NCBI GenBank assembly: GCA_964643595.1
Contig: CAZXTQ010000001.1
Coordinates: 1-32,000 of the forward strand
Direction of reading: 5' to 3'
From: an uncultured Methanosarcinales archaeon
GTDB taxonomy: Archaea > Nanobdellota > Nanobdellia > Woesearchaeales > UBA11576
DNA length: 32,000 bases
The number at the start of each line of letters is the position of its first letter. Positions within the stretch are counted from its first letter, which is position 1. Shown in pieces: positions 7,399-21,490 of this stretch. The notes below the pieces were generated by a model. It had not been told where the DNA came from. It did not search any database and was given only the letters and a program-made list of their open reading frames with translations. The position numbers were made by a program, and so were the translations under genes.

Positions 7399-8940
7399 TC
7401 ATCGGGTGAGGTTTATCGTGCCTTCTTCTATGGCTCTTCTTGTCCAGTTGTCTATTTCTTGGTCTAGTAGTTTATGTTTGTATTCTTTTTCATATATCGC
7501 TGTAGCAATGATGGCTATCATCTCTGGTGCGAGCGTTTTTTTGATGTGTGCATCGATAATGCCTTTCTCCCTGATGAAGTCAGTGCTTAATCTGCCTTTT
7601 TTCATATCAGGATGGTCTATGACTGTCTTGCAGAATGATATGTTGTTGATTATGCCTTCTATCTTCAGGTGCGTGAGTGCATCTGACATCGCCTTTATTG
7701 CAGAGCGACGGTCTTTTGACCATACCATCACTTTTGCAAGCAGAGAGTCATATTGAGGGTTTACTTTAATTCCTGAGTATATTGCAGTATCTATCCTTAG
7801 TCTGTATTGTCCTGATATCTCTTTTTCTGGTTTTGAGGATAGTGCTGCGTGTGCTACTATGCCTCTTGATGGGCTGAAGTTGTCTCTGGTATTTTCTGCG
7901 ATTATCCTGCACTCTATTGCGTGACCGTTCAGGTTTATGTCGGTCTGTCTGATGGATATCGGGCTGCCTTGTGCTATCCTTATCTGTTCCATGACTAGGT
8001 CTACTCCTGTAATCATCTCAGTTATGCCATGCTCTACCTGTATCCTTGGATTTATCTCAAGGAAATACAGTTTGCCTGATTCATCAAGAAGGAATTCAAC
8101 TGTTCCCACTCCTGCATATCCTGCTCTAAGAGCCAGCTCACAGACTTTTTTTCCGAACTCTTCTTTGATCTTTCTGCTGAGAGGTGATGGTGCTTCTTCT
8201 ATGAGTTTTTGGTGTCTCCGCTGGATTGAGCATTCTCTGTCAGAGAGGTGTACTGCTTTTCCGTGCTTGTCTGCCATGAACTGTATCTCAATATGTCTTC
8301 CGCGGATGTGTTTTTCTGCAAATAGGTCTTTGCAGTTGAAGGTTGCTGTAGCCTCATTTAGTGATGCTTCAAACAGGGTCTGTATGTTCTCTTCCTTATA
8401 GACGATACGTATTCCTTTTCCTCCTCCGCCTTTGCATGACTTCAGGACTAAGGGGTAGCCGTTATCAGATCCGAATTTTCGGGCATCATCTGCAGTGTAT
8501 AGCCTTGTGCTGCTTCCTATTGTTTCTAGTCCTGATTCTCTGGCAAGGTCCTGCGCTGCGAGTTTGTCTGCGACCCTGTTCAGCGCTTTGGATGACGGTC
8601 CGATGAATAGTATTCCTGCATCTTCGCATGCTTCTGCGAGTTCAGGGTTCTCTGCCAGAAAGCCATAACCTGGATGTAGTGCATCACATCGAGACTTTTT
8701 GGCTACCTTTATTATTTTCTTTATGTTTAAGTGGGTGGATACGAGGTTTTCTCCTTCTATCTTGATGTATTCGTCAGCAGAATGTGCTATTATCTTATTT
8801 CTGTCGTTGGTTGTATAAATGGCAGCAGTCTTGATTCCCATCTGCTTGCATGATCTTATTATCCTTAGGACTATCTCTCCTCTGTTTGCTATGAGTATCT
8901 TCTTGATATTTCTTACTTGATATCTTTTCGCGTGTAACAT
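7399..8940 (-). CDS. accC: Biotin carboxylase subunit of acyl-CoA carboxylase (ATP-grasp).
   Basis: KKILIANRGEIVLRIIRSCKQMGIKTAAIY, GYGFLAEN, GGGGKGIR and EINPRIQVEH are classic AccC motifs. 513 aa, as in archaeal AccC. Confidence 0.9.
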   Translation of the reverse strand: MLHAKRYQVRNIKKILIANRGEIVLRIIRSCKQMGIKTAAIYTTNDRNKIIAHSADEYIKIEGENLVSTHLNIKKIIKVAKKSRCDALHPGYGFLAENPELAEACEDAGILFIGPSSKALNRVADKLAAQDLARESGLETIGSSTRLYTADDARKFGSDNGYPLVLKSCKGGGGKGIRIVYKEENIQTLFEASLNEATATFNCKDLFAEKHIRGRHIEIQFMADKHGKAVHLSDRECSIQRRHQKLIEEAPSPLSRKIKEEFGKKVCELALRAGYAGVGTVEFLLDESGKLYFLEINPRIQVEHGITEMITGVDLVMEQIRIAQGSPISIRQTDINLNGHAIECRIIAENTRDNFSPSRGIVAHAALSSKPEKEISGQYRLRIDTAIYSGIKVNPQYDSLLAKVMVWSKDRRSAIKAMSDALTHLKIEGIINNISFCKTVIDHPDMKKGRLSTDFIREKGIIDAHIKKTLAPEMIAIIATAIYEKEYKHKLLDQEIDNWTRRAIEEGTINLTR

Positions 8941-8976
8941 ATTTCTGGGGGTATAGTGCTCATCATTATTCGATTA

Positions 8977-9438
8977 TTATTCAAATTCTATGAGCACGTC
9001 TCCTTTTGATACTGTCTGATTCTTTTTGGTGTTTACATGTTTTACTTTTGCATCTTTTTGGGATCTTATCTCGTTTTCCATCTTCATTGACATGAGTTTT
9101 ATGATTGTCTGGCCTTTCTTGACCGCAGCGCCTTCAGGGACCTTAACTGCAGTTATTATCCCTTGCATAGGGCTTCTGAGGAATCTGGAGTCTTCTTGGT
9201 TGTCATATGCCTTTTCCACACAATATGTCTCTTGACCTATGGTTATTCGGGAAGTTCCGTCATCATCAGTGGCAGTCCTTACTTCATAAGTATTCCTGTC
9301 GGTGTGTATCAGAGGTCCTTCGACAGATGTAGATACTTTTGCTGTTTTTATTTTCTCACCGGAAATAGTGACTTCGTAGCTGTCTCTGCCTGGTTTGATC
9401 GTGACTTCAAAGATGTGTCCGTCTATGTTGAGTTTCAT
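8977..9438 (-). CDS. accB: Biotin carboxyl carrier protein.
   Basis: C-terminal biotinyl domain PMQGIITAVKVPEGAAVKKGQTIIKLMSMKMENEI with the MKM biotinyl-lysine motif. Lies between accC and the carboxyltransferase gene. Confidence 0.8.
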   Translation of the reverse strand: MKLNIDGHIFEVTIKPGRDSYEVTISGEKIKTAKVSTSVEGPLIHTDRNTYEVRTATDDDGTSRITIGQETYCVEKAYDNQEDSRFLRSPMQGIITAVKVPEGAAVKKGQTIIKLMSMKMENEIRSQKDAKVKHVNTKKNQTVSKGDVLIEFE

Positions 9439-9452
9439 CTTGTAGAAACAGT

Positions 9453-10970
9453 TCAGAGTGGCATGTTGCCGTGTTTTTTCAGTCTGCGCTGGACTCTTTT
9501 TGTGGCTAGGCTTTCAAGTGATTTTATGAGTGTCTGCCTTGTCTTGGATGGATCTATTATCATGTCTATGCTTCCTATATCTGCCGCCACATAAGGGTTA
9601 AGGAACTTCTCTGAGTATTCTTGTTGTCTGACCTGTCTGTCTTCGGATCCTTTGAAGATTATTTCGGCTGCCTGACGTGACCCCATCACGGCTATCCGTG
9701 CGATGGGCCACGCTATTACCTGGTCAAAGCCCATCTCTTTGGAGCACATTACTATATATGCGCCACCGTATGCTTTTCTCATTATGAGTGATATTTTAGG
9801 TACTGTTGATTCTGCGTAGGCGTATAGCAGGTCTGCGCCATGTTTTATTATTCCGTGGTATTCTTGTTCTTTTCCTGGGAGGTATCCTGGGACGTCAACA
9901 AAATTTATGAGTGGTATGTTGAATGCATCACAGAACCTGACGAATCTTGCGGCTTTTTCTGATGCGTCTATGTCTATGCAACCGGCTAGCATGCTTGGTT
10001 GGTTGGCCACGACGCCGACCACTTTATTGTTCAGTCTTGCGAGAGCAATCACTATGTTCTTTGCGAATGCAGGCTGTATTTCCATGACAGAATTCTTGTC
10101 GAGAACTTCACAAAGGACGTCTTTTACATCGTAGCTTTTTTCAGGGTCTGCAGGCACTATTTTCATGAGCTTCTTTGTATTGCGGTTAGGTGTGTCGCCT
10201 GTCTTCATAAGTGGTGGTTTTGTAATGTTGTTGAGTGGCAGGTAGCTGAGTAGTTTCCTGACTTTTGTGAGTGCATCTGGTTCAGATTGCTCTTCGAAGT
10301 GTGCTACTCCGGTCATCTCTGCGTGGACTTCGGCTCCGCCAAGCTCGTCAGGTGATACTTTTTCAGAAAGCACGCTTTTTATTACTCGCGGTCCTGTTAT
10401 GAACATCTTGCTGAGACCTTTTACCATGAATACAAAATCAGTAAGTGCTGGAGAGTATACTGCACCTCCTGCGCAGGGTCCTGCTACGACCGATATCTGA
10501 GGGACCACTCCGCTGGCTTCTGTGTTTCGCTGGAATATCCTTGCGTAACCGTCGAGAGCCTTTATGCCTTCCTGGATTCGCGCCCCTCCGGAGTCTTCGA
10601 TACCTATTATCGGACAGCCAGTCTTTATTGCAAGATCCATTATCTTGACTATTTTTTTGGCATGCATCTCACCTAGTGTGCCGCCTTTCTGTGTGAAGTC
10701 CTGTGCGTATACGCAGACATGTCTTCCGTCTATTTTTCCATATCCTGTTACGACTCCGTCGCTCTTTAAGTGTTGCATCTGAGGGTCGGATGATCTTACG
10801 AACAGGTCTGTCTCTACGAATGTTTTCTTGTCTAGAAGCATGACTATTCTTTCCCTTGCAGTTAGCTTGTTGTTGTCGTGTTGCTTGTTTGCAGGGATAT
10901 TCTTTGTATTTTTCTCTTTTTTCAGGAATTCTGCATTCCTCTGCATGAATTCGTCAGCTCGTCTGGACAT
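9453..10970 (-). CDS. pccB: Acyl-CoA carboxylase carboxyltransferase subunit (propionyl-CoA carboxylase beta / methylmalonyl-CoA decarboxylase alpha family).
   Basis: KLTARERIVMLLDKKTFVETD, GVVTGYGKIDGRHVCVYAQDFTQKGGTLGE and GIEDSGGARIQEG are typical of single-chain CT subunits. Confidence 0.85.
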   Translation of the reverse strand: MSRRADEFMQRNAEFLKKEKNTKNIPANKQHDNNKLTARERIVMLLDKKTFVETDLFVRSSDPQMQHLKSDGVVTGYGKIDGRHVCVYAQDFTQKGGTLGEMHAKKIVKIMDLAIKTGCPIIGIEDSGGARIQEGIKALDGYARIFQRNTEASGVVPQISVVAGPCAGGAVYSPALTDFVFMVKGLSKMFITGPRVIKSVLSEKVSPDELGGAEVHAEMTGVAHFEEQSEPDALTKVRKLLSYLPLNNITKPPLMKTGDTPNRNTKKLMKIVPADPEKSYDVKDVLCEVLDKNSVMEIQPAFAKNIVIALARLNNKVVGVVANQPSMLAGCIDIDASEKAARFVRFCDAFNIPLINFVDVPGYLPGKEQEYHGIIKHGADLLYAYAESTVPKISLIMRKAYGGAYIVMCSKEMGFDQVIAWPIARIAVMGSRQAAEIIFKGSEDRQVRQQEYSEKFLNPYVAADIGSIDMIIDPSKTRQTLIKSLESLATKRVQRRLKKHGNMPL

Positions 10971-11728
10971 TATGTGTGATACCCTCCGTTTGCGGATATT
11001 ACTTCGCCTGTGGTGTAGGTCGCATCTGCTACAAGGAACAGTGCTATTTTTGCTATCTCTGAAGGTTCTGCAAGCCGTTTCATGGGATTTGCGTCTATGT
11101 ACATCTGTCTGAACTTGTCGTCGACTCCGCGCATCATGTCGGTCTCTACGCCGCCTGGTGCGATGGCATTTACAGTTATCCCATGACGTGCGACTTCAAG
11201 TGCGATTGATTTTGTAAAACCTACCACTCCCCACTTTGCAGCGGCATAATTGGACTGGCCGAAAGCGCCTGTCTGACCGTACAAGGAGGATATGTTGATT
11301 ATGCGTCCGCCGTTATGTTCGATCATATGATTGACAAGAGCACGTGTCATGTTGAAGGTTCCGTTCAGGTCTATATCTATGACTTTATGCCATTGGGATA
11401 CTTCCATCTTCAAGAGGAGTGAAGGACTGACTATGCCTGCGTTGTTGACGAGTATATCTATGCGGCCAAAGAATTCTTCTGCCTGTTTTACTAATGATTC
11501 TGCTTCTTCATATTTTGATATGTCTGCCTTTGCAAGGTATGTCCTGACCGGGTGTGTCCGTCCTTCACATATCTTTTTTATATCTTCTTCAGTGGCGCGG
11601 GCTGCTTCGTCGTTCCGCGAATAGTTTATGACTATATTACATCCCTGACGGGCAAACTCTAATGCAATTGCCTTCCCTATCCCTCTAGAGCTACCTGTTA
11701 TGATTGCAGTTTTTCCTTGGAGTTTCAT
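10970..11728 (-). CDS. fabG: Short-chain dehydrogenase/reductase, 3-oxoacyl reductase (FabG-like).
   Basis: TGSSRGIGKAIA cofactor-binding motif, NNAGI, and catalytic S...YAAAKWG. Its stop codon shares one base with the start codon of the CT gene. Confidence 0.8.
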   Translation of the reverse strand: MKLQGKTAIITGSSRGIGKAIALEFARQGCNIVINYSRNDEAARATEEDIKKICEGRTHPVRTYLAKADISKYEEAESLVKQAEEFFGRIDILVNNAGIVSPSLLLKMEVSQWHKVIDIDLNGTFNMTRALVNHMIEHNGGRIINISSLYGQTGAFGQSNYAAAKWGVVGFTKSIALEVARHGITVNAIAPGGVETDMMRGVDDKFRQMYIDANPMKRLAEPSEIAKIALFLVADATYTTGEVISANGGYHT

Positions 11729-11780
11729 GTCTTCACCTTTTTCAATTTAATTAATTTAAGTTTTTGTGGTTTTTTGATGT

Positions 11781-12545
11781 TTATTTTTTCTTGTCAATAA
11801 ATGCAGATATTGCATCTTTTGCTTGCTGAGTTCCTAGACATTTTTTGAATTCGGATATCCCCTTTTCAGTTGTGTTCTCTATTTCAGAAGCTGCAGCTAT
11901 TTTTTTTATTGCGGCGACTGCGGCAGGATTTTGCGAGTTAACCTTTTCAGCAATCATTTCTGCGCGATTCATTATGTTCCAACTGTTGCTTATTTCATCT
12001 ATTAGACCCATATTCAGTGCTTCTTTCGCAGTGATTGTCCTTCCTGTTAAAAGTAGGTTCATTGATTTTCTTTTACCTACTTGTCTCACGAGCCTTTTTA
12101 TCCCTCCTGCTCCGGGAATAAGTCCTATTTTTATCTCAGGAAGTGAGAATTTTGCTGTAGGAGTTGCTATTATGTAGTCGAATGCGAGCGTTATCTCAAA
12201 ACCTCCACCTACGCAGTATCCGTTGACTACCGCGATGCTAAACTTGTCAGATATTTCAAGCTCGTCAAGAACAGTCGCGCCAAGCTTGACACCTTCCATG
12301 ACTTTGTTGTTTGTCAGATTTCTGAAGTCATTTATGTCCAGGCCAGTGCAGAATGACTGGTTCCTTCCGCTGACTATTATTGTGGAGATGCTATTATCTC
12401 TTATACCTGATCTTACTGCTGCAGAGAATTCTTTGACTGTCTCACTGTGTAGGACCGGATATTTATTCATCGAACCTATTGTTATATGTAGTGTTTTTCC
12501 TTTTTTTTCTTTAAGTATGGTTGTTTTGTTTTTTGTGGTGCTCAT
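11781..12545 (-). CDS. Enoyl-CoA hydratase (crotonase superfamily).
   Basis: AVVNGYCVGGGFEITLAFDYIIATPTAKFSLPEIKIGLIPGAGGIKRL. Both catalytic Glu positions of rat ECH are present (GGGFE and LPEI). Confidence 0.8.
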   Translation of the reverse strand: MSTTKNKTTILKEKKGKTLHITIGSMNKYPVLHSETVKEFSAAVRSGIRDNSISTIIVSGRNQSFCTGLDINDFRNLTNNKVMEGVKLGATVLDELEISDKFSIAVVNGYCVGGGFEITLAFDYIIATPTAKFSLPEIKIGLIPGAGGIKRLVRQVGKRKSMNLLLTGRTITAKEALNMGLIDEISNSWNIMNRAEMIAEKVNSQNPAAVAAIKKIAAASEIENTTEKGISEFKKCLGTQQAKDAISAFIDKKK

Positions 12546-12549
12546 TTTT

Positions 12550-13572
12550 TCACCGATTTTTTTTGTACCATCGCAGGACGTTTGCTCCCCATGATAGTCC
12601 TGAACCGAATGCTACAGTGACGATGAGGTCTCCATCATGAAGTTTTCCGCCACGGTTTGCTTCATCGATTACCGTCAGGACAGACCCTCCTCCTATGTTT
12701 CCGTGTCGCTGTACATTTGTGATTGTCTTGTTCATCGGAAGCCCGAGCATTCTCATACCTTCTTTTATGATGTTGAGGTTTGCCTGATGGGGAAATACAT
12801 ATTTTATCTTTGATATCGATGTTCCTGTCTTCTCAAGGACCTGTTTGATAGCATTCTCAAATTTATCTACTGCGAATTCAAATATTGGTCTTCCATTCAT
12901 GTGGATATGGTATTCTCCTGATTCTATGACTTCCTGCGAGAAAACTTTTTTGGATCCTCCGACGAATATTCCGAGGTTCTCTGCACCGTCTGCTTTTGAT
13001 CCGAGTACGCTTCCGATCAGTCCGTATCCTTTCTTGACTCGGGATACTACTGCTGCTGCAGCTCCATCTCCAAAGATGACTGATGTTACTCTGCTGTGTG
13101 GGTATTTTGAGAATATCTCTCCGTTGATTATCAAGCCTGTCTTGTACCTTCCTGATTCTATCATACTTGCCGCGATTTCCAGACAATAGGGTACTCCTCC
13201 GCAGATTATGTTTAAGTCTATCGCGAATGCCTGTTCTGCACCGATAGCTTTCTTGACAAGGTTTCCTGTGAATAGTGTTGCAGGGTAATCGTGGCTCATC
13301 GCGCCGGTGATTATGAAGTCTATTTCAGAAGGTGCTATTTTTGCATCCTCGAGTGCTTTACGTGCGGCAGGTATTGCAAGGTCTGACAATGCTAGTTCGG
13401 AGCATGCAAATCTTCTTTCTTTTATTCCGGTCTTTGTGATTATCCACTCGTCTGTTGTATCGACCAGGTTTTCAAGTTCTTTATTGGTTACTCTGCGAGG
13501 AGGGAAGTATGTTCCCGTACCTATTATTCCTGCGGAGTATATTGATTCTTTTCTGAACAAGTAGTTCACCAT
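12550..13572 (-). CDS. fabH: KAS III-type condensing enzyme (FabH / NphT7-like thiolase fold).
   Basis: A Cys-His-Asn triad in the expected contexts: AIDLNIICGGVPYCL, FPHQANLNII, GNIGGGS. 340 aa. Confidence 0.8.
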   Translation of the reverse strand: MVNYLFRKESIYSAGIIGTGTYFPPRRVTNKELENLVDTTDEWIITKTGIKERRFACSELALSDLAIPAARKALEDAKIAPSEIDFIITGAMSHDYPATLFTGNLVKKAIGAEQAFAIDLNIICGGVPYCLEIAASMIESGRYKTGLIINGEIFSKYPHSRVTSVIFGDGAAAAVVSRVKKGYGLIGSVLGSKADGAENLGIFVGGSKKVFSQEVIESGEYHIHMNGRPIFEFAVDKFENAIKQVLEKTGTSISKIKYVFPHQANLNIIKEGMRMLGLPMNKTITNVQRHGNIGGGSVLTVIDEANRGGKLHDGDLIVTVAFGSGLSWGANVLRWYKKNR

Positions 13573-13613
13573 CTTTTTTGATTATTGTTGAAATTAATTT
13601 TTTCTTTTTTTCT

Positions 13614-14447
13614 TCAGATGTGTTTTTTGAAGAATGTTACTGCTTCTTTACACACGTCTGGAAGCGTTCTTTTGAGGAAATGTCCGTCGTCAACTTCAAT
13701 GATGTTTTTGTCTTTAGAGCCGCAGAGGTTAAACATCTCTTTCACAATATTTGTGTTTATCATCCTATCTTTTTTTGATTGTATAAATAAAGTTGGTATT
13801 TTTATTTTTGGGAGGACTGTTCTCGTATCGAGTCCATTTATGAGTTCTGGTATAAATTTTCTAGGGCTATAGTGCAGACCTGTGCCTTTTTCTAGTTTCA
13901 CGACGTGAAGTTCGCGCTGACTATCGGGTACGAGTCTTTTTATCCTTATCTTTTCGACCAGCCATGCAAGCGAGTACCTGAAATACCTGGTGTTGAACTG
14001 TCTGCTTCTGCGTTCCATATAGTCATAATCAGGATAGGAGTTGACAAGCGTAATTGCTTTGACTTTATTGTTTGTGGCTGCGCAGTATGTTGCGGGTATG
14101 CCTCCATAGCAGAAACCGAACAGCGCGACATTGTTTTTTTTGTATCTCTTGGTTAGGTGTGAGATTATCTTATCAAGGTCTTCAGGAAGTTTTTTTGCAG
14201 AGAATTCTCCTGTTGATTCATTATGCGCTCTGCGATCATATGCAAATGCGGTAAATCCTTTTGCTGAGATATATTCAGCGAACTTGGTTGTTATGTTCCA
14301 TCTGTTCAGGCTAAGACCTGTATCTATTATGACGATTGATTTTGGATGAAGATCTTTCTTGGGTTTGAATATTGTACCCACTATATCTGCATCGCCTACA
14401 TTAATTTTGATGTCTTCCATAATCTTGTGATTTGCTATTTTTGGCAT
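13614..14447 (-). CDS. Alpha/beta-hydrolase with a Cys nucleophile (dienelactone-hydrolase-like). First gene of the acyl operon.
   Basis: The nucleophile elbow reads ALFGFCYGGIPA (G-x-C-x-G, as in the DLH motif GYCLGG) rather than G-x-S-x-G. A C-terminal DDGHF supplies a candidate His. Confidence 0.65.
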   Translation of the reverse strand: MPKIANHKIMEDIKINVGDADIVGTIFKPKKDLHPKSIVIIDTGLSLNRWNITTKFAEYISAKGFTAFAYDRRAHNESTGEFSAKKLPEDLDKIISHLTKRYKKNNVALFGFCYGGIPATYCAATNNKVKAITLVNSYPDYDYMERRSRQFNTRYFRYSLAWLVEKIRIKRLVPDSQRELHVVKLEKGTGLHYSPRKFIPELINGLDTRTVLPKIKIPTLFIQSKKDRMINTNIVKEMFNLCGSKDKNIIEVDDGHFLKRTLPDVCKEAVTFFKKHI

Positions 14448-14487
14448 TTTTTTATTTGTTTAGTAACTATTGGTGTCCTTTTTATTA

Positions 14488-14495
14488 TTTATAAA
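14488..14495. promoter_or_regulatory. Palindromic TATA box TTTATAAA in the divergent promoter region between the acyl operon and the 1007-aa gene.
   Basis: Its near (minus-side) edge lies 41 nt upstream of the minus-strand ATG at 14447. The same octamer precedes S3Ae, trkA and hisS. Confidence 0.45.
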
Positions 14496-14589
14496 CATAT
14501 ATACCAATATTTTTATAAGGATTGCTTTATATTTTAGGTATTCTTATTAACTATGATTGTGTAGTTACTGGTTTGGTGAAGTGAAGCGT

Positions 14590-17500
14590 ATGGGGGAGAA
14601 CACAGGTCTAAGTGAGTTGGAGCATCTTGTGGAAAGGTGGCGGGTTCAGTTCAATCCTTTTGTGGAAGAACGTTTTTTGACAGGTAGAGAAATACCTGGG
14701 CGGGTTGTCCGTGAAAGTGTGGAGTATTTCTTTGAGTCGGGAGGTGAACCTGGTATTATAGCTCGAGAGTTAGGGTCTAAGTTCAGAGAATCAAGTAATA
14801 GGGGTCTTTTTGGTGTCAGTTCAATTTCTGTCGATGATCTTCTGGATGATTCAAGATTCTATACTGATGAGACTTTTGCACTGCTGTCTTTCCTGCTGAA
14901 GATTGATCGTGGAGATGCTTCTTTCTGTTTCAATTCAGTTGAATCTGAGTTGTACGATGCAGGGCATAAGCTTTATGAGGTTGCACCCCTACGCTCAAAA
15001 GTGTTTATAGAGCCTAATTCTTCAGGCAGTGTTAGTTGTCGTAATTTTGGGGCTGCGTTGGATACTATGCGGGATATCTGTTCTGAGCGGGCACAGGATA
15101 GGGGTTGGGATGTTGATAAATATGTTAATTCTCGTCTGGAGTTTTTATTCAGGATGTTCAATGTATTTATCAACAATGAAGGATTGTACATAGATCGAAA
15201 AGACCTTATTGACCCGAGATTATGGGTGCGGTATGAGGCGTCGCAGTTTTTCCTTGAGGCCTGTAAGATTGTGACAGGACGAAGCGATTTCGTCAAGATT
15301 ATGGCTGCGCGTAATTTTCCAGTATTTATCAAACTTCTTGCTAACATCTTAGATGTTGGAACTGGATTTCATGAGATAACTGGAATAGCTAACAAGTATA
15401 ATTCATTGCTGGATATTGGTCTTAAAGAGAGGGGAACTGGATATGCAGTAGTATCTGTGACTCCTTCAGATGTTCTGAGGGATATTGCAGGTAAACGTTT
15501 CAATGCGTGTATGCAGTTATCTTGTGATGTTGCTAAGTATACTATGGAGAAGATTCCTAAGCTGTACGGTCTGAATAGTTATGGATTTGTTGAAGTTTCG
15601 TGCTGTGTTGAAAATGCGATTGATTTTTCTGACCGGGCAGGGGGTATGGTGCCAAAAGGTCATATTTGTGAGTATCATTACAAATGGTTTCCTATAGCAA
15701 CAGGTTGGAGAAGGCTTTTGAACCCCGTTTTCCTCTTAGGCGCTGCTAATATTCCTTTGATACCTGCGGTAATCGGGTCTGATATGTCTTCTCTTGAGAA
15801 AGTTCTCATGATAGGTACAGGTCTGATTGCACCGTTAGGTGCTGCTGCTGTGAATAAGATATTCAACCAACAGAGGCACATAGGTGATATCGAGGAATAT
15901 CATCGTATACAGGAAAATAAAGCAGAGCAGCAACGTCATGACTTGCTCCAGCGTGAGATTGATGTGGCTAAGACCAATCTGGAACATACGTACAGCAGTC
16001 TTTATCTCATGAGTCTTCAGTACACAGATTATCTTAGGTTATTGAAGGGAGGGGATATAGATGCTGCTTTGTCTCAGATGGACACTCTCCAGGATACTGT
16101 TGTAAAGTATTTGGAAGATACTGCGTTGAAGGGTGCTCGTAACACAGGTCTTTTAGATTTTAGGCGTAAGTTGGATGATGCTGCGCTGTTCCTTGCATAT
16201 GGGCAGGCTGTCGACGGGACGTTCAATCCTCTTACTGGCAAGAGTGGTAGTGCAGTATTTCTTACAGAGTCTGATGAGAAACGTACTAACATATCTAAGC
16301 GTTTTGCTTTAAAGGAGATGGGTTCTGTCGAGGCACTGGTCTATTCCTGGTTTAGGGATAAGGGTATGAAGGAGATGATGCGGTTCCCTACTCCTGAAAT
16401 TCTTGCTTATAGGGTTGTGCCAAGTTGGGATGAATCTAAAAGTTGTATTGTTGAGGTTCCTATAATGTTGATGGAACAGATTGACGGACCTACTCTTTAT
16501 GATTTTTTCAGGATGTTGAACAATAAGACTTGTTTAGATGGTTCTGGAAATGATTTGACAAGACACTATATTGACAGTCTTAAAGATTCAGTCATAGATA
16601 GATTGTTGGAAAGGTACTGTTACCTGACGGATCAATTGCAGAGTGATGAAGAAGGTTCTCTTGGAAGACATCTTGATTTGGGGGGTGTGGTTCGTATACG
16701 CGAAGGTGCTTATATTGCCAAGACGACAGAAGTGTTTGAGGATTGTTTAATGGGTGATGCTTGTCCTGACAGTCAGAAAGAGGTATTGTACGTGGTCGCC
16801 CAGATTATAGGTGAGGTTCTGGATAAGGTGAAGAAGGTTCCGTTCATTGATATGGGTTCTTTGAACGCAAGTCTTCCTGCAAGGTCACTTTATTCCCGGC
16901 TTCTTCTTTTACATGAAGGTGTGGACGATTTCAGCGCAGAGGTTTCTGCAGTTGAAAAGCCTGCACGTACGACTATGGAGCTTGCGCTTGATGATATGGT
17001 GTCGCATATGGACGATGCAGATTTCCGCGAGAATATATTCGATGTGTGTGCTGATGAATTGGTTCGTTTTGATTTTGAGAAGCTCAGGATAGACACGTTA
17101 GAGTTTGATGACCTGAGTCATATGACTGATTTCTTGCCTTACGGTTCGTCACCAGAGCGAAGGGCTAAGGTTAATGCGAGATACCTTGCGTTGAGATATG
17201 TTGCTAAAGACGAGCCTTGCGGACAGCATATTCTGGGGCTGATTCATGAAGGTCGGACTGATGATGCTGTTGAACTCATGCGCTCGGTCATAGATTATTC
17301 TAGTATTGAGTCTGAGCGCGCACTTGTATCTATATACAGGAATCTGCGTTGGGTGCGGTTCTATTCAGACTTGGATGCTGATAAGTTTGATGATCTGCAT
17401 TCTAAAAAGCAGACTCGTGAGTATCATTTAAATATTATACTTGAGGACATAGGGGTATATCTAAGAGAGAACAGCATCGGCAGAATGCAGGATAGGGTGA

Positions 17501-17613
17501 TATCTTTGGATTCTGCTTGGCAGGATGTTTCTGATAGGGGCATCATTGGAGCTTTAAGTTACTTGAAACATTACCTGAATGGCATTATTGATGATGGGGG
17601 GGGGCAATCTTGA
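14590..17613 (+). CDS. Large (~1007 aa) membrane-hairpin protein of unknown family. N-terminal ~370-aa domain, two TM helices, a coiled coil, and a C-terminal region with protein-kinase-like motifs.
   Basis: The track ORF is 14557-17613. I prefer the ATG at 14590, which has GGTGA upstream. TM pair: LLNPVFLLGAANIPLIPAVIG and VLMIGTGLIAPLGAAAVNKIF (~15715-15870). Coiled coil: EEYHRIQENKAEQQRHDLLQREIDVAKTNLE. Kinase-like string: GKSGSAVFL, FALKE, LMEQIDGPTLYDF, FIDMGSLN, VDDFS or RFDFE. Confidence 0.7.
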   Translation: MGENTGLSELEHLVERWRVQFNPFVEERFLTGREIPGRVVRESVEYFFESGGEPGIIARELGSKFRESSNRGLFGVSSISVDDLLDDSRFYTDETFALLSFLLKIDRGDASFCFNSVESELYDAGHKLYEVAPLRSKVFIEPNSSGSVSCRNFGAALDTMRDICSERAQDRGWDVDKYVNSRLEFLFRMFNVFINNEGLYIDRKDLIDPRLWVRYEASQFFLEACKIVTGRSDFVKIMAARNFPVFIKLLANILDVGTGFHEITGIANKYNSLLDIGLKERGTGYAVVSVTPSDVLRDIAGKRFNACMQLSCDVAKYTMEKIPKLYGLNSYGFVEVSCCVENAIDFSDRAGGMVPKGHICEYHYKWFPIATGWRRLLNPVFLLGAANIPLIPAVIGSDMSSLEKVLMIGTGLIAPLGAAAVNKIFNQQRHIGDIEEYHRIQENKAEQQRHDLLQREIDVAKTNLEHTYSSLYLMSLQYTDYLRLLKGGDIDAALSQMDTLQDTVVKYLEDTALKGARNTGLLDFRRKLDDAALFLAYGQAVDGTFNPLTGKSGSAVFLTESDEKRTNISKRFALKEMGSVEALVYSWFRDKGMKEMMRFPTPEILAYRVVPSWDESKSCIVEVPIMLMEQIDGPTLYDFFRMLNNKTCLDGSGNDLTRHYIDSLKDSVIDRLLERYCYLTDQLQSDEEGSLGRHLDLGGVVRIREGAYIAKTTEVFEDCLMGDACPDSQKEVLYVVAQIIGEVLDKVKKVPFIDMGSLNASLPARSLYSRLLLLHEGVDDFSAEVSAVEKPARTTMELALDDMVSHMDDADFRENIFDVCADELVRFDFEKLRIDTLEFDDLSHMTDFLPYGSSPERRAKVNARYLALRYVAKDEPCGQHILGLIHEGRTDDAVELMRSVIDYSSIESERALVSIYRNLRWVRFYSDLDADKFDDLHSKKQTREYHLNIILEDIGVYLRENSIGRMQDRVISLDSAWQDVSDRGIIGALSYLKHYLNGIIDDGGGQS

Positions 17614-18491
17614 TTGATCTTCACGTCCACATCAATGAGGATGATGCCAAGAATCCTCCTGAGGTTGTAGTTGAGCATGCTGTCCTGCAGGGCATCACTG
17701 ATATTGCTATGGTGGTGCATGATTATGTAGGTCATATGGCGCGTTGTGTAGGATTAGGTGTGCGTAATGGTCTAAAATCGCTTCCTGTGACTGAACTCAC
17801 TGCACATGATGGTCATTATCTTATGTTTTTTCCTGACCTGTCTGCTATGGATGATTCTGATTTTGTGAGGCGGCTCCAGTTTATTTATGATGCGCGAAGA
17901 TCCCGTCTGCAGAAACTTGCTGATGACACCCTGCGCAATCCGTATGTTTTTTATCTTGAAGGTTTCGGAAAGGTGGAGTTCTCGTTCACCGAGGATGATC
18001 TCGACAGGATAGCGTCAGGAGATAGGATCTTGAGTGGCCATCTTGCCCAGCTTCTATCGAAGAGGGTTGGGGGCATAGTGTCTGGCCGTTCTGCTTACGA
18101 TCTTCTGGGGGGTCTCTTGAAGCGCGAGTGTTACTGTTCTGATGATTGTTATTGTACTGCAGCGTTCTCATTGGACGAGCTTCTTGATTACAAGAAAAGA
18201 TTCGGTTCGGTTCTTGTGCAAGCGCATCCAGCGCTAATAACTGAGAGCGAGATTCTGTTGAAGCTTGCGAAAGGTGTTGATGGTTTTGAGCTCTCTCCGA
18301 AGAATCCTTTTGAATACAATCTGACGCTGGCAGAGTACTCTGCAAGGCATTCTTTCCTGCTTACTGTCGGTTCTGATAATCACATGTGGGAGTCTGACAG
18401 TCTCGGTTTCCTTGCATGGCAGCCTGAGATTGCTCCACATATCGACGAGAAGAATGTGGTGGCTGGAATTTACAGACTGCTTGGGAGATGA
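17610..18491 (+). CDS. PHP-domain metal-dependent phosphoesterase (TrpH/YciV-like).
   Basis: MIDLHVHINEDD (motif I DLHxH), AMVVHD, QAHP and GSDNH are in PHP order. The TTG start overlaps the upstream stop by 4 nt (TTGA), implying translational coupling. Confidence 0.75.
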   Translation: MIDLHVHINEDDAKNPPEVVVEHAVLQGITDIAMVVHDYVGHMARCVGLGVRNGLKSLPVTELTAHDGHYLMFFPDLSAMDDSDFVRRLQFIYDARRSRLQKLADDTLRNPYVFYLEGFGKVEFSFTEDDLDRIASGDRILSGHLAQLLSKRVGGIVSGRSAYDLLGGLLKRECYCSDDCYCTAAFSLDELLDYKKRFGSVLVQAHPALITESEILLKLAKGVDGFELSPKNPFEYNLTLAEYSARHSFLLTVGSDNHMWESDSLGFLAWQPEIAPHIDEKNVVAGIYRLLGR

Positions 18492-18733
18492 TTGTTTTCA
18501 GCACTATTTCTCTTGTATTTGTTTAGCGGTTATTGGCAGTGCTGCCACAGCGACGTGCGCGTTTTCCAACAAGAAATTCCAAAAGGATTGCACTTTAGCA
18601 TATTAATCAATGTTCGTGCACCGACCAAACACTATTTCTTCGGATAGCAACCGACTAGGGTGTAGCTGCGTGGCTGTGCTGCCATGATTGATCTAAACAA
18701 CTACTTCATCTCTATTATGGTGTTTTTCTTCCT

Positions 18734-19666
18734 TCAGCTTAGCTTCCCTTCAAAATCTGCTTTTAGGAATACCAGTGCGCCCACTGAATCATGCAGTGTC
18801 CTTGTTATGTATGATAGATGGCTTAATATGACTGAATTATTTCCTTTCTTTAGCAGCAGGAGTCTTTTGAGCTCTTCAGTTGTCTTGTCTAGTTTCTCTG
18901 AGAATGATGAGAAATCTTGTAGGTTAAATTTGTAGAAAAGTTTGTAGAATTCTTCAAGTGAGTTGTTGACCTGGTTGAATGCCTCCAGGACTTCTTTATC
19001 TATTTTGAGTGTTTTCACTTCTGAGAGGTCTTTGCATATCAGTTTGTATCCATCACCTATATTTTCGAGAAGCCATACTATGAAGTATTCGTATCTGTTT
19101 TCCAGAGTTATTGCTTCATCATTGAGAAGTCTTTCAGAGAAATTGGTCAGCTTGTCGTTTGTCTGTTCAAGTTTTATCACTTCATTCATTGCGTAATTGT
19201 CATTCTTGCTGATGAATTCAAGGCATTGCCTTGCCTGTGACGTGGTGACCAGAAATATTTTGCGCAGTATGCTATTGAAGTTCGTGGGCATGCCTTCTGC
19301 TATGTTCTTTATCAGGCAGTAATCGTTTGTCTGTTCGATCACTTCAAAGCCGAGAAGTGAGGATGATACTTTTTCGTGTATGGTCTGCATGACTTTTTTA
19401 GATATGCCTACTAATTTTATCTCGTGGTATCCTGTTTTGTGTATCAGGGATATCAATGGCCATATTGTGCGGGTGTCAATCTTTGATGCGTCTATGTGTG
19501 CTCTTTTGACCTGTTCTTGATTGTTTATTGTGGTTACAAGAAGGAATGTGCCTCTTTCGCTGACATCCAGTTCGTCACCTTTTTCAATCTTGTTTTTCTT
19601 TACCCACTCAGAAGGTAATGAGACTACTTTTGTGAATCCTGCTATCTGGACTACTTTTCTTCTCAT
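18734..19666 (-). CDS. AbrB/SpoVT-domain plus PhoU-like regulator (archaeal phosphate-uptake-regulator type).
   Basis: N-terminus VVQIAGFTKVVSLPSEWVKKNKIEKGDELDV (swapped-hairpin AbrB type), followed by a helical PhoU-like region. Confidence 0.6.
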   Translation of the reverse strand: MRRKVVQIAGFTKVVSLPSEWVKKNKIEKGDELDVSERGTFLLVTTINNQEQVKRAHIDASKIDTRTIWPLISLIHKTGYHEIKLVGISKKVMQTIHEKVSSSLLGFEVIEQTNDYCLIKNIAEGMPTNFNSILRKIFLVTTSQARQCLEFISKNDNYAMNEVIKLEQTNDKLTNFSERLLNDEAITLENRYEYFIVWLLENIGDGYKLICKDLSEVKTLKIDKEVLEAFNQVNNSLEEFYKLFYKFNLQDFSSFSEKLDKTTEELKRLLLLKKGNNSVILSHLSYITRTLHDSVGALVFLKADFEGKLS

Positions 19667-20750: not shown

Positions 20751-20803
20751 CACCCTCTTTCTCTATCCAAAAATACCATAAATCGTTATTGAAGGGTTTT
20801 AAT

Positions 20804-21490
20804 ATGGCAGTTAAGTCTAAAAAAGGCAAAACAGTTGATAAATGGCGTAAGAAGAAGTTTTTCTCAGTCTTAGCTCCGAAGATGTTTCAGGAGAGGGAGT
20901 TAGGTCAGGCAATGGCTTATGAGCCGTCTTTATTGCAGGACAGGCGTCTTAATACTAATCTTATGGTTCTTACTGGTAATATCAAGAAGCAGGATATAAA
21001 TGTCACTTTCAGGGTCGTAAAGGTCCAGGGTGATACGGCTTTCACAAGGCTTGACAAGTACGAGATCAGCCCTGCTGCTCTGAAAAGAAGAGTTAGGAGA
21101 CAGAGGGACAGGCTGGATGATTCTTTCCAGTGCGTTACCAAAGACAACAAGATTATTAGGATCAAACCACTTATACTTACTAGGGTTAAGACATCTAAGT
21201 CTGTGAAGACTGCTTTCAGGAAAGCTATGCTTCAGCATATGATAAATTCTATCAGAAATTATGAGTATGATGCTCTTGTCATGGACATAATTAATGACCG
21301 GTTGCAGAAAGAGATGTCTCATAAACTGAGCAAGATTGTTCCTATAAGGTTTGTCAATATCCGTGTGCTTCAGTATCTTGGTGAGCAGAAGTCTGCTACA
21401 GAACCTGTTACAGAAGCACCTAAAAAAGAAGAGGAGAAAAAGGTTGTCGCAGAGCCAGCACCAAAAACAAAAGCTCCTGTCGAAGCCTGA
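20804..21490 (+). CDS. rps3ae: 30S ribosomal protein S3Ae (eS1).
   Basis: MAVKSKKGKTVDKWRKKKFFSVLAPKMF is the canonical S3Ae N-terminus. I prefer the ATG at 20804 to the track start at 20789. Confidence 0.9.
   Translation: MAVKSKKGKTVDKWRKKKFFSVLAPKMFQERELGQAMAYEPSLLQDRRLNTNLMVLTGNIKKQDINVTFRVVKVQGDTAFTRLDKYEISPAALKRRVRRQRDRLDDSFQCVTKDNKIIRIKPLILTRVKTSKSVKTAFRKAMLQHMINSIRNYEYDALVMDIINDRLQKEMSHKLSKIVPIRFVNIRVLQYLGEQKSATEPVTEAPKKEEEKKVVAEPAPKTKAPVEA

Follow-up and report, generated by a model that had tools for sequence, protein, structure and literature searches.

What can be the function of a protein of about one thousand residues that belongs to no recognized family, and whose gene runs directly into that of a PHP-type phosphoesterase? 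This question is raised by a DNA stretch of 32,000 nucleotides (nt) from an uncultured archaeon placed in the Woesearchaeales by the GTDB taxonomy (positions 1–32,000 of contig CAZXTQ010000001.1, assembly GCA_964643595.1; the whole stretch is hereafter called the window), in which an initial annotation had proposed a candidate module of two genes. In the reading favored here, the two genes constitute one functional unit of a rare and undescribed family. The unit is best explained as a sensor-coupled switch composed of a kinase and a phosphoesterase and tied to lipid or acyl metabolism, an explanation whose chance we put close to even, if slightly below it.

The Gene Pair and Its Relatives

The two genes and the sequence element at their junction are located as follows (aa, amino acids; ORF, open reading frame).

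14590–17613 including the stop codon, plus strand: large gene, 1007 aa from the ATG at 14590, in an ORF that is open from 14557
17596–17604, plus strand: run of nine G residues (G9) near the 3′ end and still within the large ORF, with 5 nt between it and the TTG start of the PHP gene
17610–18491, plus strand: PHP gene, 293 aa, with a TTG start

The ORF coordinates bear out the two-gene arrangement that had been proposed, including its 4-nt overlap: the TTG start of the PHP gene (17610–17612) and the TGA stop of the large gene (17611–17613) share the sequence TTGA. The G9 run just upstream is the sole G/C homopolymer of seven or more residues in the window, and its position is occupied in the orthologues by GGAAGGTG, GAGGAAGAGG or GAGGGATGG, which are GGAGG-like elements. 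Probably, the run is an equivalent of the Shine-Dalgarno (SD) sequence and serves translational coupling of the PHP gene. The same run has another property: upon a −1 slip or in a G10 variant, the large ORF would run into the PHP frame (…GGGAILIDLHVH…), and such a read-through would recreate the fused architecture known from relatives of about 1200 aa, which are described below.

In at least four lineages, with identities as low as 25–27%, the two genes of the pair adjoin or overlap each other. For the PHP protein, two homologues are detectable, with 50% and 45% identity. On the contigs that carry the first of them (loci L001–L005), a gene for a 980-aa protein is located directly upstream of that for a 299-aa PHP protein, and the two overlap by 8 nt. 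The 980-aa protein is 44% identical to the window protein over the full length, and the identity amounts to 35% in the N-domain, 49% in the hairpin, 56% in the linker, and 46% in the kinase-like region. Because this orthologue is full-length and free of frameshifts and retains every domain, the large gene can be regarded as more than a chance ORF. In the locus of the second PHP homologue (L006), the C-terminal tail of a third orthologue ends a few nt before the PHP gene, and in L009 the gene for a 953-aa protein with 25–27% identity overlaps by 4 nt with the start of a PHP gene (MIDLHMH...VVHD). The junctions are accordingly overlaps of 4, 8, and 4 nt or a gap of a few nt, and an SD-like purine- or G-rich element lies 5–14 nt before every PHP start; translational coupling therefore appears to be a conserved feature. 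Two of the findings that the initial annotation had named as refuting the module, a pairing confined to this genome and frameshifts in the large gene, were not obtained: the pairing is kept in other lineages, and the orthologue with 44% identity shows no frameshift.

Furthermore, four relatives of 1195–1234 aa (proteins P0008 and P0013–P0015) have no separate PHP gene, and a gene for an AbrB-like protein comes directly after theirs. These proteins end in a domain of about 320 aa in which HxH, EH, E, H, H(P), E-x-N, and DxH are invariant, and this order of residues is what we take, from established knowledge of the family, to be the order of the PHP motifs. Searches of this C-terminal domain against NCBIfam and PDB profiles were negative. 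Its hhalign comparisons with the split PHP protein (E 0.031) and with a YcdX sequence (E 0.014) were not significant and gave a sensible register, and they serve here, like the other hhalign comparisons given below, as weak checks of consistency only. The gene-fusion argument for a functional pairing of the two proteins is suggestive, and the pair is found either coupled or putatively fused in eight lineages.

The family is extremely rare. The large protein had been described as lacking a recognized family, and indeed no curated family model matches it: no match was obtained in Pfam, NCBIfam, PADLOC, or a sequence search of the PDB. When 1.84 billion representative proteins were scanned exhaustively with phmmer, only 14 relatives emerged at E ≤ 1e-3, while word-index homology searches, which were capped at 8000 candidates, returned nothing, either with the large protein or with a family alignment of 15 sequences. 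Relatives were found neither in the first scan of genome contigs nor in either of the two scans of metagenome contigs. A fragment of 40 aa bearing the name “DNA polymerase” stands for the 90%-identity cluster of the large protein; because of this representative, the family is hidden from word-index searches and the wrong name could spread. Only the relative in L009 bears a taxonomic name, belonging to a metagenome-assembled genome of Candidatus Woesearchaeota. Since none of the Pfam, NCBIfam, and PADLOC models captures the family, its members are annotated merely as “hypothetical protein” at present.

Domains of the Two Proteins

Four regions can be distinguished in the large protein.

14590–15699, plus strand: N-domain (aa 1–370), with a helical subdomain and an H-NOX/V4R-like beta-beta-alpha-beta-beta part
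15712–15864, plus strand: hydrophobic hairpin (aa 375–425), with two Pro/Gly-containing segments and the loop GSDMSSLEK
15865–16224, plus strand: helical linker or putative signaling helix (aa 426–545), the best-conserved segment (56% identity)
16225–17610, plus strand: predicted kinase-like domain of the APH/choline-kinase type (aa 546–1007), delineated by AlphaFold, Foldseek, and invariant columns

The C-terminal domain is the part on which the idea of a switch depends most. An AlphaFold model of residues 515–1007, made from an alignment of six sequences, reached a predicted local distance difference test score (pLDDT) of 78 and a predicted template modeling score (pTM) of 0.80, and the N-lobe of the model follows the canonical order of a kinase: strand, strand, alphaC helix, strand, strand, hinge. 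When the model was compared with the PDB by Foldseek, about 45 of the top 50 neighbors were proteins of the kinase fold. APH(3′)-Ia was the best match (E 9.9e-3, probability 1.00); choline kinase, YopO, and LegK7 came next, along with numerous protein kinases of the eukaryotic type. Kinase-like landmarks are also found in the sequence: a G-loop (GKSGSAVF), a beta3 lysine, K570 (16297–16299), a hinge (MEQIDGPTL), a catalytic loop D754-x4-N759 (16849–16866), and the metal-binding motif D828-F-E830 (17071–17079), with D840-x3-H844 located 12 residues downstream. K570 is kept in all four sequences that cover the N-lobe and D754 and N759 in all five available, and D828, E830, D840, and H844 are invariant in six out of six sequences. 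A D-[FW]-E motif followed by D-x3-H, together with the lack of an activation loop, is the hallmark of the APH/choline-kinase (ChoK) branch. In the APH-fold kinase of ACAD10, the DWE motif has been shown to be essential (PMC13596139).

Several features of this domain are unusual: no His precedes the catalytic Asp (FIDMGSLN), a helical insert of about 69 aa separates N759 from D828, and a helical C-terminal extension of about 160 aa carries an invariant SxYRNxRW motif. A profile search of the domain against the PDB gave only IKK-beta, with an alignment over the hinge at E 0.28. Because no sequence profile detects a kinase, the domain is treated here as a new, very divergent kinase-like family, as judged from the model, and is assigned to none of the curated families. 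The initial annotation had considered a kinase-like C-terminus only conditionally. The fold is now upheld by a confident model, by its kinase-fold neighbors, and by the conserved motifs, and it appears nearer to the small-molecule kinases of the APH/ChoK type than to protein kinases.

The relatives of about 1200 aa have a different version of the kinase-like domain with canonical spacing, FDFSPRN-x12-DLD (D-x4-N-x12-D). In hhalign, the window-type and fused-type domains were aligned in a sensible register at a non-significant level (E 0.016, 2.8% probability). One of these relatives, P0008 (L013, 1202–4789), has an N-domain 44% identical to that of the window protein and becomes unalignable beyond residue 453 or so. 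Such a pattern implies that closely related lineages have either swapped a domain or diverged very rapidly.

For the N-terminal side, the AlphaFold model of residues 1–470 was made from 11 sequences and reached a pLDDT of 84 and a pTM of 0.76. All of the 32 best PDB neighbors of the N-domain in Foldseek are H-NOX proteins (best E 8.4e-4, probability 1.00; template modeling (TM) score, normalized by target, 0.5–0.66), after which come YslB and, lower down, Bet3. A relation between V4R and TRAPP proteins has been described previously (PMC2253512). The N-domain matches neither the HNOB nor the V4R model of Pfam. On the basis of the structural model, it is placed in the H-NOX/V4R fold group.

By the order of secondary structures, the H-NOX-like part corresponds to residues from about 150 to 366, and H261 is located at the expected position of the proximal haem ligand, a mapping that follows this order rather than a residue-level structural alignment. 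In relatives, the position is occupied by G, T, E, or R. Haem binding is unlikely because the position is not conserved, and the domain was rejected as a haem-binding H-NOX on this ground; nor was a YxSxR haem-propionate motif seen on the sheet strands when the sequence was read. Within residues 1–150 (14590–15039), E42, G51-G52, E94, K104, D109, H126, E130, P133, and S149 are invariant. The polar ones among the invariant residues are concentrated in the helical subdomain ahead of the H-NOX-like part, and the set resembles a site for a polar ligand, a metal, or catalysis more than a hydrophobic pocket. The N-domain is also found in other contexts: in P0021, N-domain and hairpin stand before HisKA/HATPase_c, and in P0011 they come after a Pkinase domain. 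Because it thus occurs on a histidine kinase and on a Ser/Thr kinase, the N-domain is probably an input module. HisKA/HATPase_c itself is absent from the window protein and occurs only in P0021, a distant relative.

Two closely spaced transmembrane helices had been claimed to follow the N-domain. The hydrophobic segments are present at residues from about 377 to 396 and from about 404 to 423, and their hydropathy is moderate (Kyte-Doolittle maxima of 1.74 and 1.44 over 19 residues); a membrane hairpin or a re-entrant anchor is plausible, not proven. In the model, one continuous helix from residue 401 to 469 extends the second hydrophobic segment, in keeping with the coiled coil that had been claimed, or with a signaling helix. 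The linker fits a signaling helix because of this continuity and because it shows the highest conservation in the protein.

The second gene encodes a genuine PHP protein. The PHP motifs are found in the order that had been reported, DLHVH (aa 3–7), VVHD (35–38), QAHP (204–207), and GSDNH (254–258), and the metal ligands H5, H7, D12, H37, E62, H69, H206, D256, and H258 are kept in all full-length orthologues. The Pfam PHP model does not match any of the PHP sequences even at E ≤ 10. A profile of the orthologues matches the PDB entries 3e0f (1.9e-9), 2yb1 (Cv1693; 1.2e-6), 9etk (2.7e-5), and, over the full length, 7ug9 (RNase AM; 4.1e-4), and a search of the PDB with the single sequence also gave 3e0f (2.6e-6 over residues 3–258). 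In NCBIfam, the models of nucleoside bisphosphate phosphatase and RNase RNM were hit far below their equivalog cut-offs (27.3 versus 400 bits and 21.3 versus 375 bits, respectively), and the protein is therefore a divergent relative, not an equivalog. As judged from these profiles, it is a divergent phosphoesterase of the TrpH/YciV type with a complete set of metal ligands. Of the two types between which the initial annotation had left the choice, TrpH/YciV agrees with the matches to 3e0f, 2yb1, and 7ug9; a tyrosine phosphatase of the CpsB/YwqE type was rejected, as no such structure is among the PDB matches at E ≤ 1.

Gene Neighborhood and Interpretation

The following features flank the pair.

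7399–14447, minus strand: divergent acyl operon, encoding biotin carboxylase, biotin carboxyl carrier protein, carboxyltransferase, SDR ketoreductase, enoyl-CoA hydratase, KAS-III, and an alpha/beta hydrolase
14448–14589, no strand: divergent intergenic region, shared with the hydrolase/acyl operon; AT-rich, as read from the sequence
18492–18733, no strand: convergent spacer, 242 nt between the PHP and AbrB-like genes, with inverted repeats of about 35 nt
18734–19666, minus strand: DNA-binding protein of the AbrB/MazE/SpoVT type (MazE_antitoxin), 310 aa, with a helical C-terminal domain

The module is divergent from the acyl operon and convergent with the regulator gene, both as previously claimed. 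What the initial annotation had not seen is that the link to a fatty-acid-type operon is specific and conserved. In seven loci (the window, L001, L007, L009, L013, L015, and L016), the large gene or its relative is divergent from a cluster of acetyl-CoA carboxylase (ACC), ketoreductase, hydratase, and KAS-III, sometimes with FabA, or from the alpha/beta hydrolase gene of such a cluster. The same acyl cluster as in the window adjoins the relatives in L001, L007, L009, L015, and L016, with or without a FabA-like dehydratase, an alpha/beta hydrolase, and a biotin ligase, the last being often found near these loci. Among archaeal loci with upstream sequence, L018 is the exception, where genes of a lipid type, encoding lycopene-cyclase-like flavoproteins, lie upstream. 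Neither an acyl carrier protein (ACP) gene nor an enoyl reductase gene was seen within the acyl cluster. The synteny, which includes the acyl operon, ribosomal protein S3Ae, and an M24 peptidase, is kept across relatives at 18–44% identity; for example, the S3Ae gene of L001 is syntenic with the window ORF 20789–21490, which, together with the relative from Candidatus Woesearchaeota, points to an archaeal and probably DPANN-related source. Another gene syntenic in L001–L003 (21804–22913, minus strand) encodes a protein of 369 aa that contains a protease-inhibitor domain of the Kazal type, an uncommon feature among archaea.

The most constant partner of the large gene is the AbrB-like gene. Encoding a protein of 300–330 aa, it is convergent in all nine loci with downstream sequence (the window, L001, L006, L007, L012, L013, L015, L016, and L018), and it is still present in L012 and L018, where the kinase-like domain occurs without PHP. 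In the window, the neighbor had been called a regulator of the AbrB-PhoU type. The AbrB half of this name holds, as the N-terminus matches MazE_antitoxin of Pfam (3.1e-5) and doc_partner of NCBIfam (4.3e-4), and PhoU for the C-terminal domain was not confirmed (Pfam E 0.064; no match among PDB profiles).

In the divergent intergenic region (14448–14589), TATA-like stretches near 14505–14535, which may function as promoters, and a GGTGA-like element before the ATG are found; its repeats are only short AT-rich ones. On the other side, the convergent spacer contains two copies of a 14-nt motif, TGGCWGTGCTGCCA, at 18534–18547 (a perfect palindrome) and 18671–18684, where 0.35 would be expected by chance. 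The copies lie within the inverted repeats of about 35 nt, the spacer folds into one long stem (ΔG −69.4, z −3.2), and no Rfam match was found for 18492–18733. The spacer may be an insertion resembling a miniature inverted-repeat transposable element, or a structured RNA. The spacer is missing in L001, where the two genes abut, and therefore probably does not belong to the module.

How could such a unit operate? In the switch proposed here, the product of the large gene would face the cytoplasm and would probably be anchored in the membrane, and its N-domain and hairpin would sense a ligand or a membrane state linked to lipid or acyl metabolism. The helix would relay the signal to the APH-type kinase domain, which would phosphorylate a target. 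This target would be the convergently encoded AbrB-type regulator or else a lipid or small phospho-metabolite. From it, the PHP enzyme would strip the phosphate off, and the balance between kinase and PHP would set the output of the divergent fatty-acid-type operon. Observed are the gene structures, the conserved pairing and neighborhood, the fold assignments, the kept catalytic and metal-binding residues, and the reuse of the input domain on other kinases. We infer from them that the large protein enters the membrane, that both proteins are active enzymes and work in opposition, and on which substrate and regulatory target they act. A regulatory role is favored because the input module is reused on other kinases, because the gene is always divergent from the operon and never inside it, because it is invariably paired with a DNA-binding protein, and because kinase and phosphoesterase are coupled or fused. 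A more specific version can be formulated: the pair would be the founding example of an undescribed archaeal phospho-switch, in which a ligand-sensing, membrane-anchored APH-type kinase and its PHP partner act on one of two targets. The target could be a metabolite of the lipid or acyl-CoA type, which would make the pair an archaeal counterpart of the ether-lipid kinase/phosphatase ACAD10 and would suit DPANN cells that scavenge lipids; or it could be the AbrB-type regulator, through which a fatty-acid pathway of the bacterial type would be controlled in archaea. This version is tentative and, on present evidence, rather unlikely.

There are several points that weigh against the switch. The kinase fold comes from a model of six sequences, with a Foldseek E-value of about 1e-2 at best and TM-scores of 0.26/0.42, which are low partly because of the insert of about 69 aa between N759 and D828. 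Neither the window type nor the fused type of the kinase-like domain has a Pfam match even at E ≤ 10, and an hhalign comparison with an APH(3′)-II sequence was not significant (E 0.91), with a sensible register. Motifs of the APH/ChoK type point to small-molecule substrates and not to a protein regulator. The invariant polar residues within 40–150 suggest that the N-domain could be catalytic rather than sensory. The equivalent of the hairpin in relatives has Kyte-Doolittle values from 1.26 to 2.05, being marginal in some members. The C-terminal domain of the fused relatives is PHP-like by motif order only, with negative or weak profile tests. In addition, the relatives P0019 and P0020 have the kinase-like domain and the AbrB partner without PHP, and PHP is therefore not obligatory. 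To our knowledge, PHP enzymes of the TrpH/YciV type are known for nucleotide or RNA substrates, not for reversing the action of kinases.

The main rival explanation is a metabolic one, in which the large protein would be a membrane-anchored small-molecule kinase for a lipid or acyl-CoA intermediate, for example a hydroxyacyl-CoA or an intermediate of glycerol-ether lipid salvage, the PHP enzyme would be the matching phosphatase, and the V4R/Bet3-like N-domain would bind a hydrophobic chain. This explanation agrees with the APH/ChoK-type motifs including D-[FW]-E, with small-molecule kinases as structural neighbors, with the lipid or acyl genes adjoining in all archaeal loci, and with the folds of the Bet3 and YslB type among the N-domain matches. 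ACAD10 and ACAD11 provide a precedent: their APH-fold kinase domains phosphorylate 4-hydroxyacyl-CoAs (PMC12440821, PMC11342911), and ACAD10 joins a 1-O-alkylglycerol kinase to a phosphatase in ether-lipid salvage (PMC13596139). The reuse of the N-domain and hairpin on a histidine kinase and a Ser/Thr kinase is, however, typical of input modules, and a gene that is divergent from the operon and always accompanied by a DNA-binding protein has the layout of a regulator. Moreover, an unregulated kinase fused to the phosphatase that reverses it would achieve nothing, and we know of no PHP enzyme that acts on lipid phosphates. On balance, the metabolic role seems unlikely, although it keeps a real share of the probability.

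Two further explanations are improbable to a similar degree. One starts from the PHP enzyme, which might be a phosphatase for pAp or 3′-phosphates or a 5′-3′ exoribonuclease, with the kinase acting on a nucleotide, on (dephospho-)CoA, or on an RNA end, so that CoA/pAp chemistry would provide the link to acyl metabolism. The closest solved relatives of the PHP protein (3e0f, Cv1693, and RNase AM), the weak NCBIfam matches, and a neighboring pathway that is based on CoA without a visible ACP gene are in line with it. The scores are nevertheless far under the equivalog cut-offs, the kinase-like domain is unlike known nucleotide, polynucleotide, or dephospho-CoA kinases, and the membrane hairpin and the sensor domain would be left unexplained. 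The other explanation regards the large protein as a pseudokinase scaffold and the PHP enzyme as independent, the pairing reflecting only co-expression. The catalytic loop without a preceding His, the large insert before D-F-E, the failure of every sequence profile to recognize a kinase, and the existence of the P0019/P0020 group, which lacks PHP, would be understandable in such a case, but K570, D754, N759, D828, and E830, which phosphotransfer requires, are kept across 22–48% identity, and the pair is coupled or putatively fused in eight lineages.

A module for defense or stress, which had been suggested initially, or a toxin–antitoxin pair of a kinase-like toxin and an antitoxin of the AbrB/MazE fold is very improbable, since despite the AbrB/MazE-fold N-terminus of the neighbor and the existence of kinase toxins such as HipA and Doc, neither the large protein nor the PHP protein has a PADLOC match at E ≤ 1, the stable synteny is of a housekeeping type unlike that of defense islands, and the partner (300–330 aa; 310 aa in the window) is convergent rather than a small, co-transcribed antitoxin, for which reason a toxin–antitoxin pair was rejected, as was a defense system on the first two grounds.

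If the switch is real, its implications would reach beyond this locus. The folds are each known; as far as the libraries and searches reach, the three sequence families, each of which stays below every curated family cut-off, appear to be undescribed, as do the architecture of an H-NOX/V4R-like domain, hairpin, helix, APH-like kinase, and PHP and its fixed tie to a bacterial-type fatty-acid cluster in DPANN-like archaea. Archaeal lipids are isoprenoid ethers, and DPANN archaea are believed to rely on their hosts for lipids. The lineages bearing the module nonetheless retain a bacterial-type cluster of acetyl-CoA carboxylase, KAS-III, ketoreductase, and hydratase, and the sensor/kinase-like/PHP unit with its AbrB-type partner is the only gene unit consistently attached to it. 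If the unit controls or feeds the pathway, it would provide a way into the question of how such archaea produce or remodel fatty-acyl compounds, and for what purpose, and thereby into the “lipid divide.” The switch would also represent a new type of output in prokaryotic signal transduction, namely an APH-fold kinase with PHP, a new non-haem branch of the H-NOX/V4R fold, and a new class of partner for PHP enzymes of the TrpH type, few of whose physiological substrates are known.

Comparison With Known Systems

The C-terminal domain is closest to the APH/ChoK families including ACAD10 and ACAD11, with which it shares the predicted bilobal fold, the beta3 Lys, D-x4-N, and D-[FW]-E with D-x3-H. 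It has, however, no sequence-profile match to any APH, ChoK, EcKL, or FN3K family and no His before the catalytic Asp, and the insert of about 69 aa, the SxYRNxRW extension of about 160 aa, the H-NOX-like domain, the hairpin, and the long helix come in addition to the APH/ChoK plan. The likeness to ACAD10 extends to a phosphatase that accompanies the kinase and to a setting related to lipids (PMC13596139), whereas the phosphatase partner is HAD in ACAD10 and PHP here.

The PHP protein resembles the TrpH/YciV group (COG0613), represented by the 3′,5′-nucleoside bisphosphate phosphatase 2yb1 and by 7ug9 and 3e0f, in its full set of metal ligands and in the full-length alignment, which includes the inserted helical region. 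It differs from this group in being very divergent, with NCBIfam scores about 15-fold below the cut-offs, and in being coupled to a kinase-like protein or, putatively, replaced by fusion with it. As for the N-domain, the fold and the position N-terminal to signaling outputs are those of H-NOX/V4R proteins, while the proximal His is not conserved, no YxSxR was found, and a helical subdomain of about 150 aa with invariant polar residues is added. A PHP phosphoesterase gene beside that of a membrane-associated kinase is also known from CpsB/YwqE with its BY-kinase; in the window, the PHP is of the TrpH/YciV type and the kinase is not of the Walker type.

In its logic, the unit may be compared with DesK-DesR of Bacillus, in which a membrane sensor kinase with opposing kinase and phosphatase activities controls lipid genes. 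Both would have a membrane hairpin whose external loop is almost nil, followed by a long helix and a kinase output that a phosphatase activity opposes, and both would adjoin genes for lipid synthesis and a DNA-binding protein. In contrast to DesK-DesR, the unit has neither HisKA/HATPase nor a receiver domain; its output would be an APH-type kinase with PHP, and its candidate regulator is of the AbrB type.

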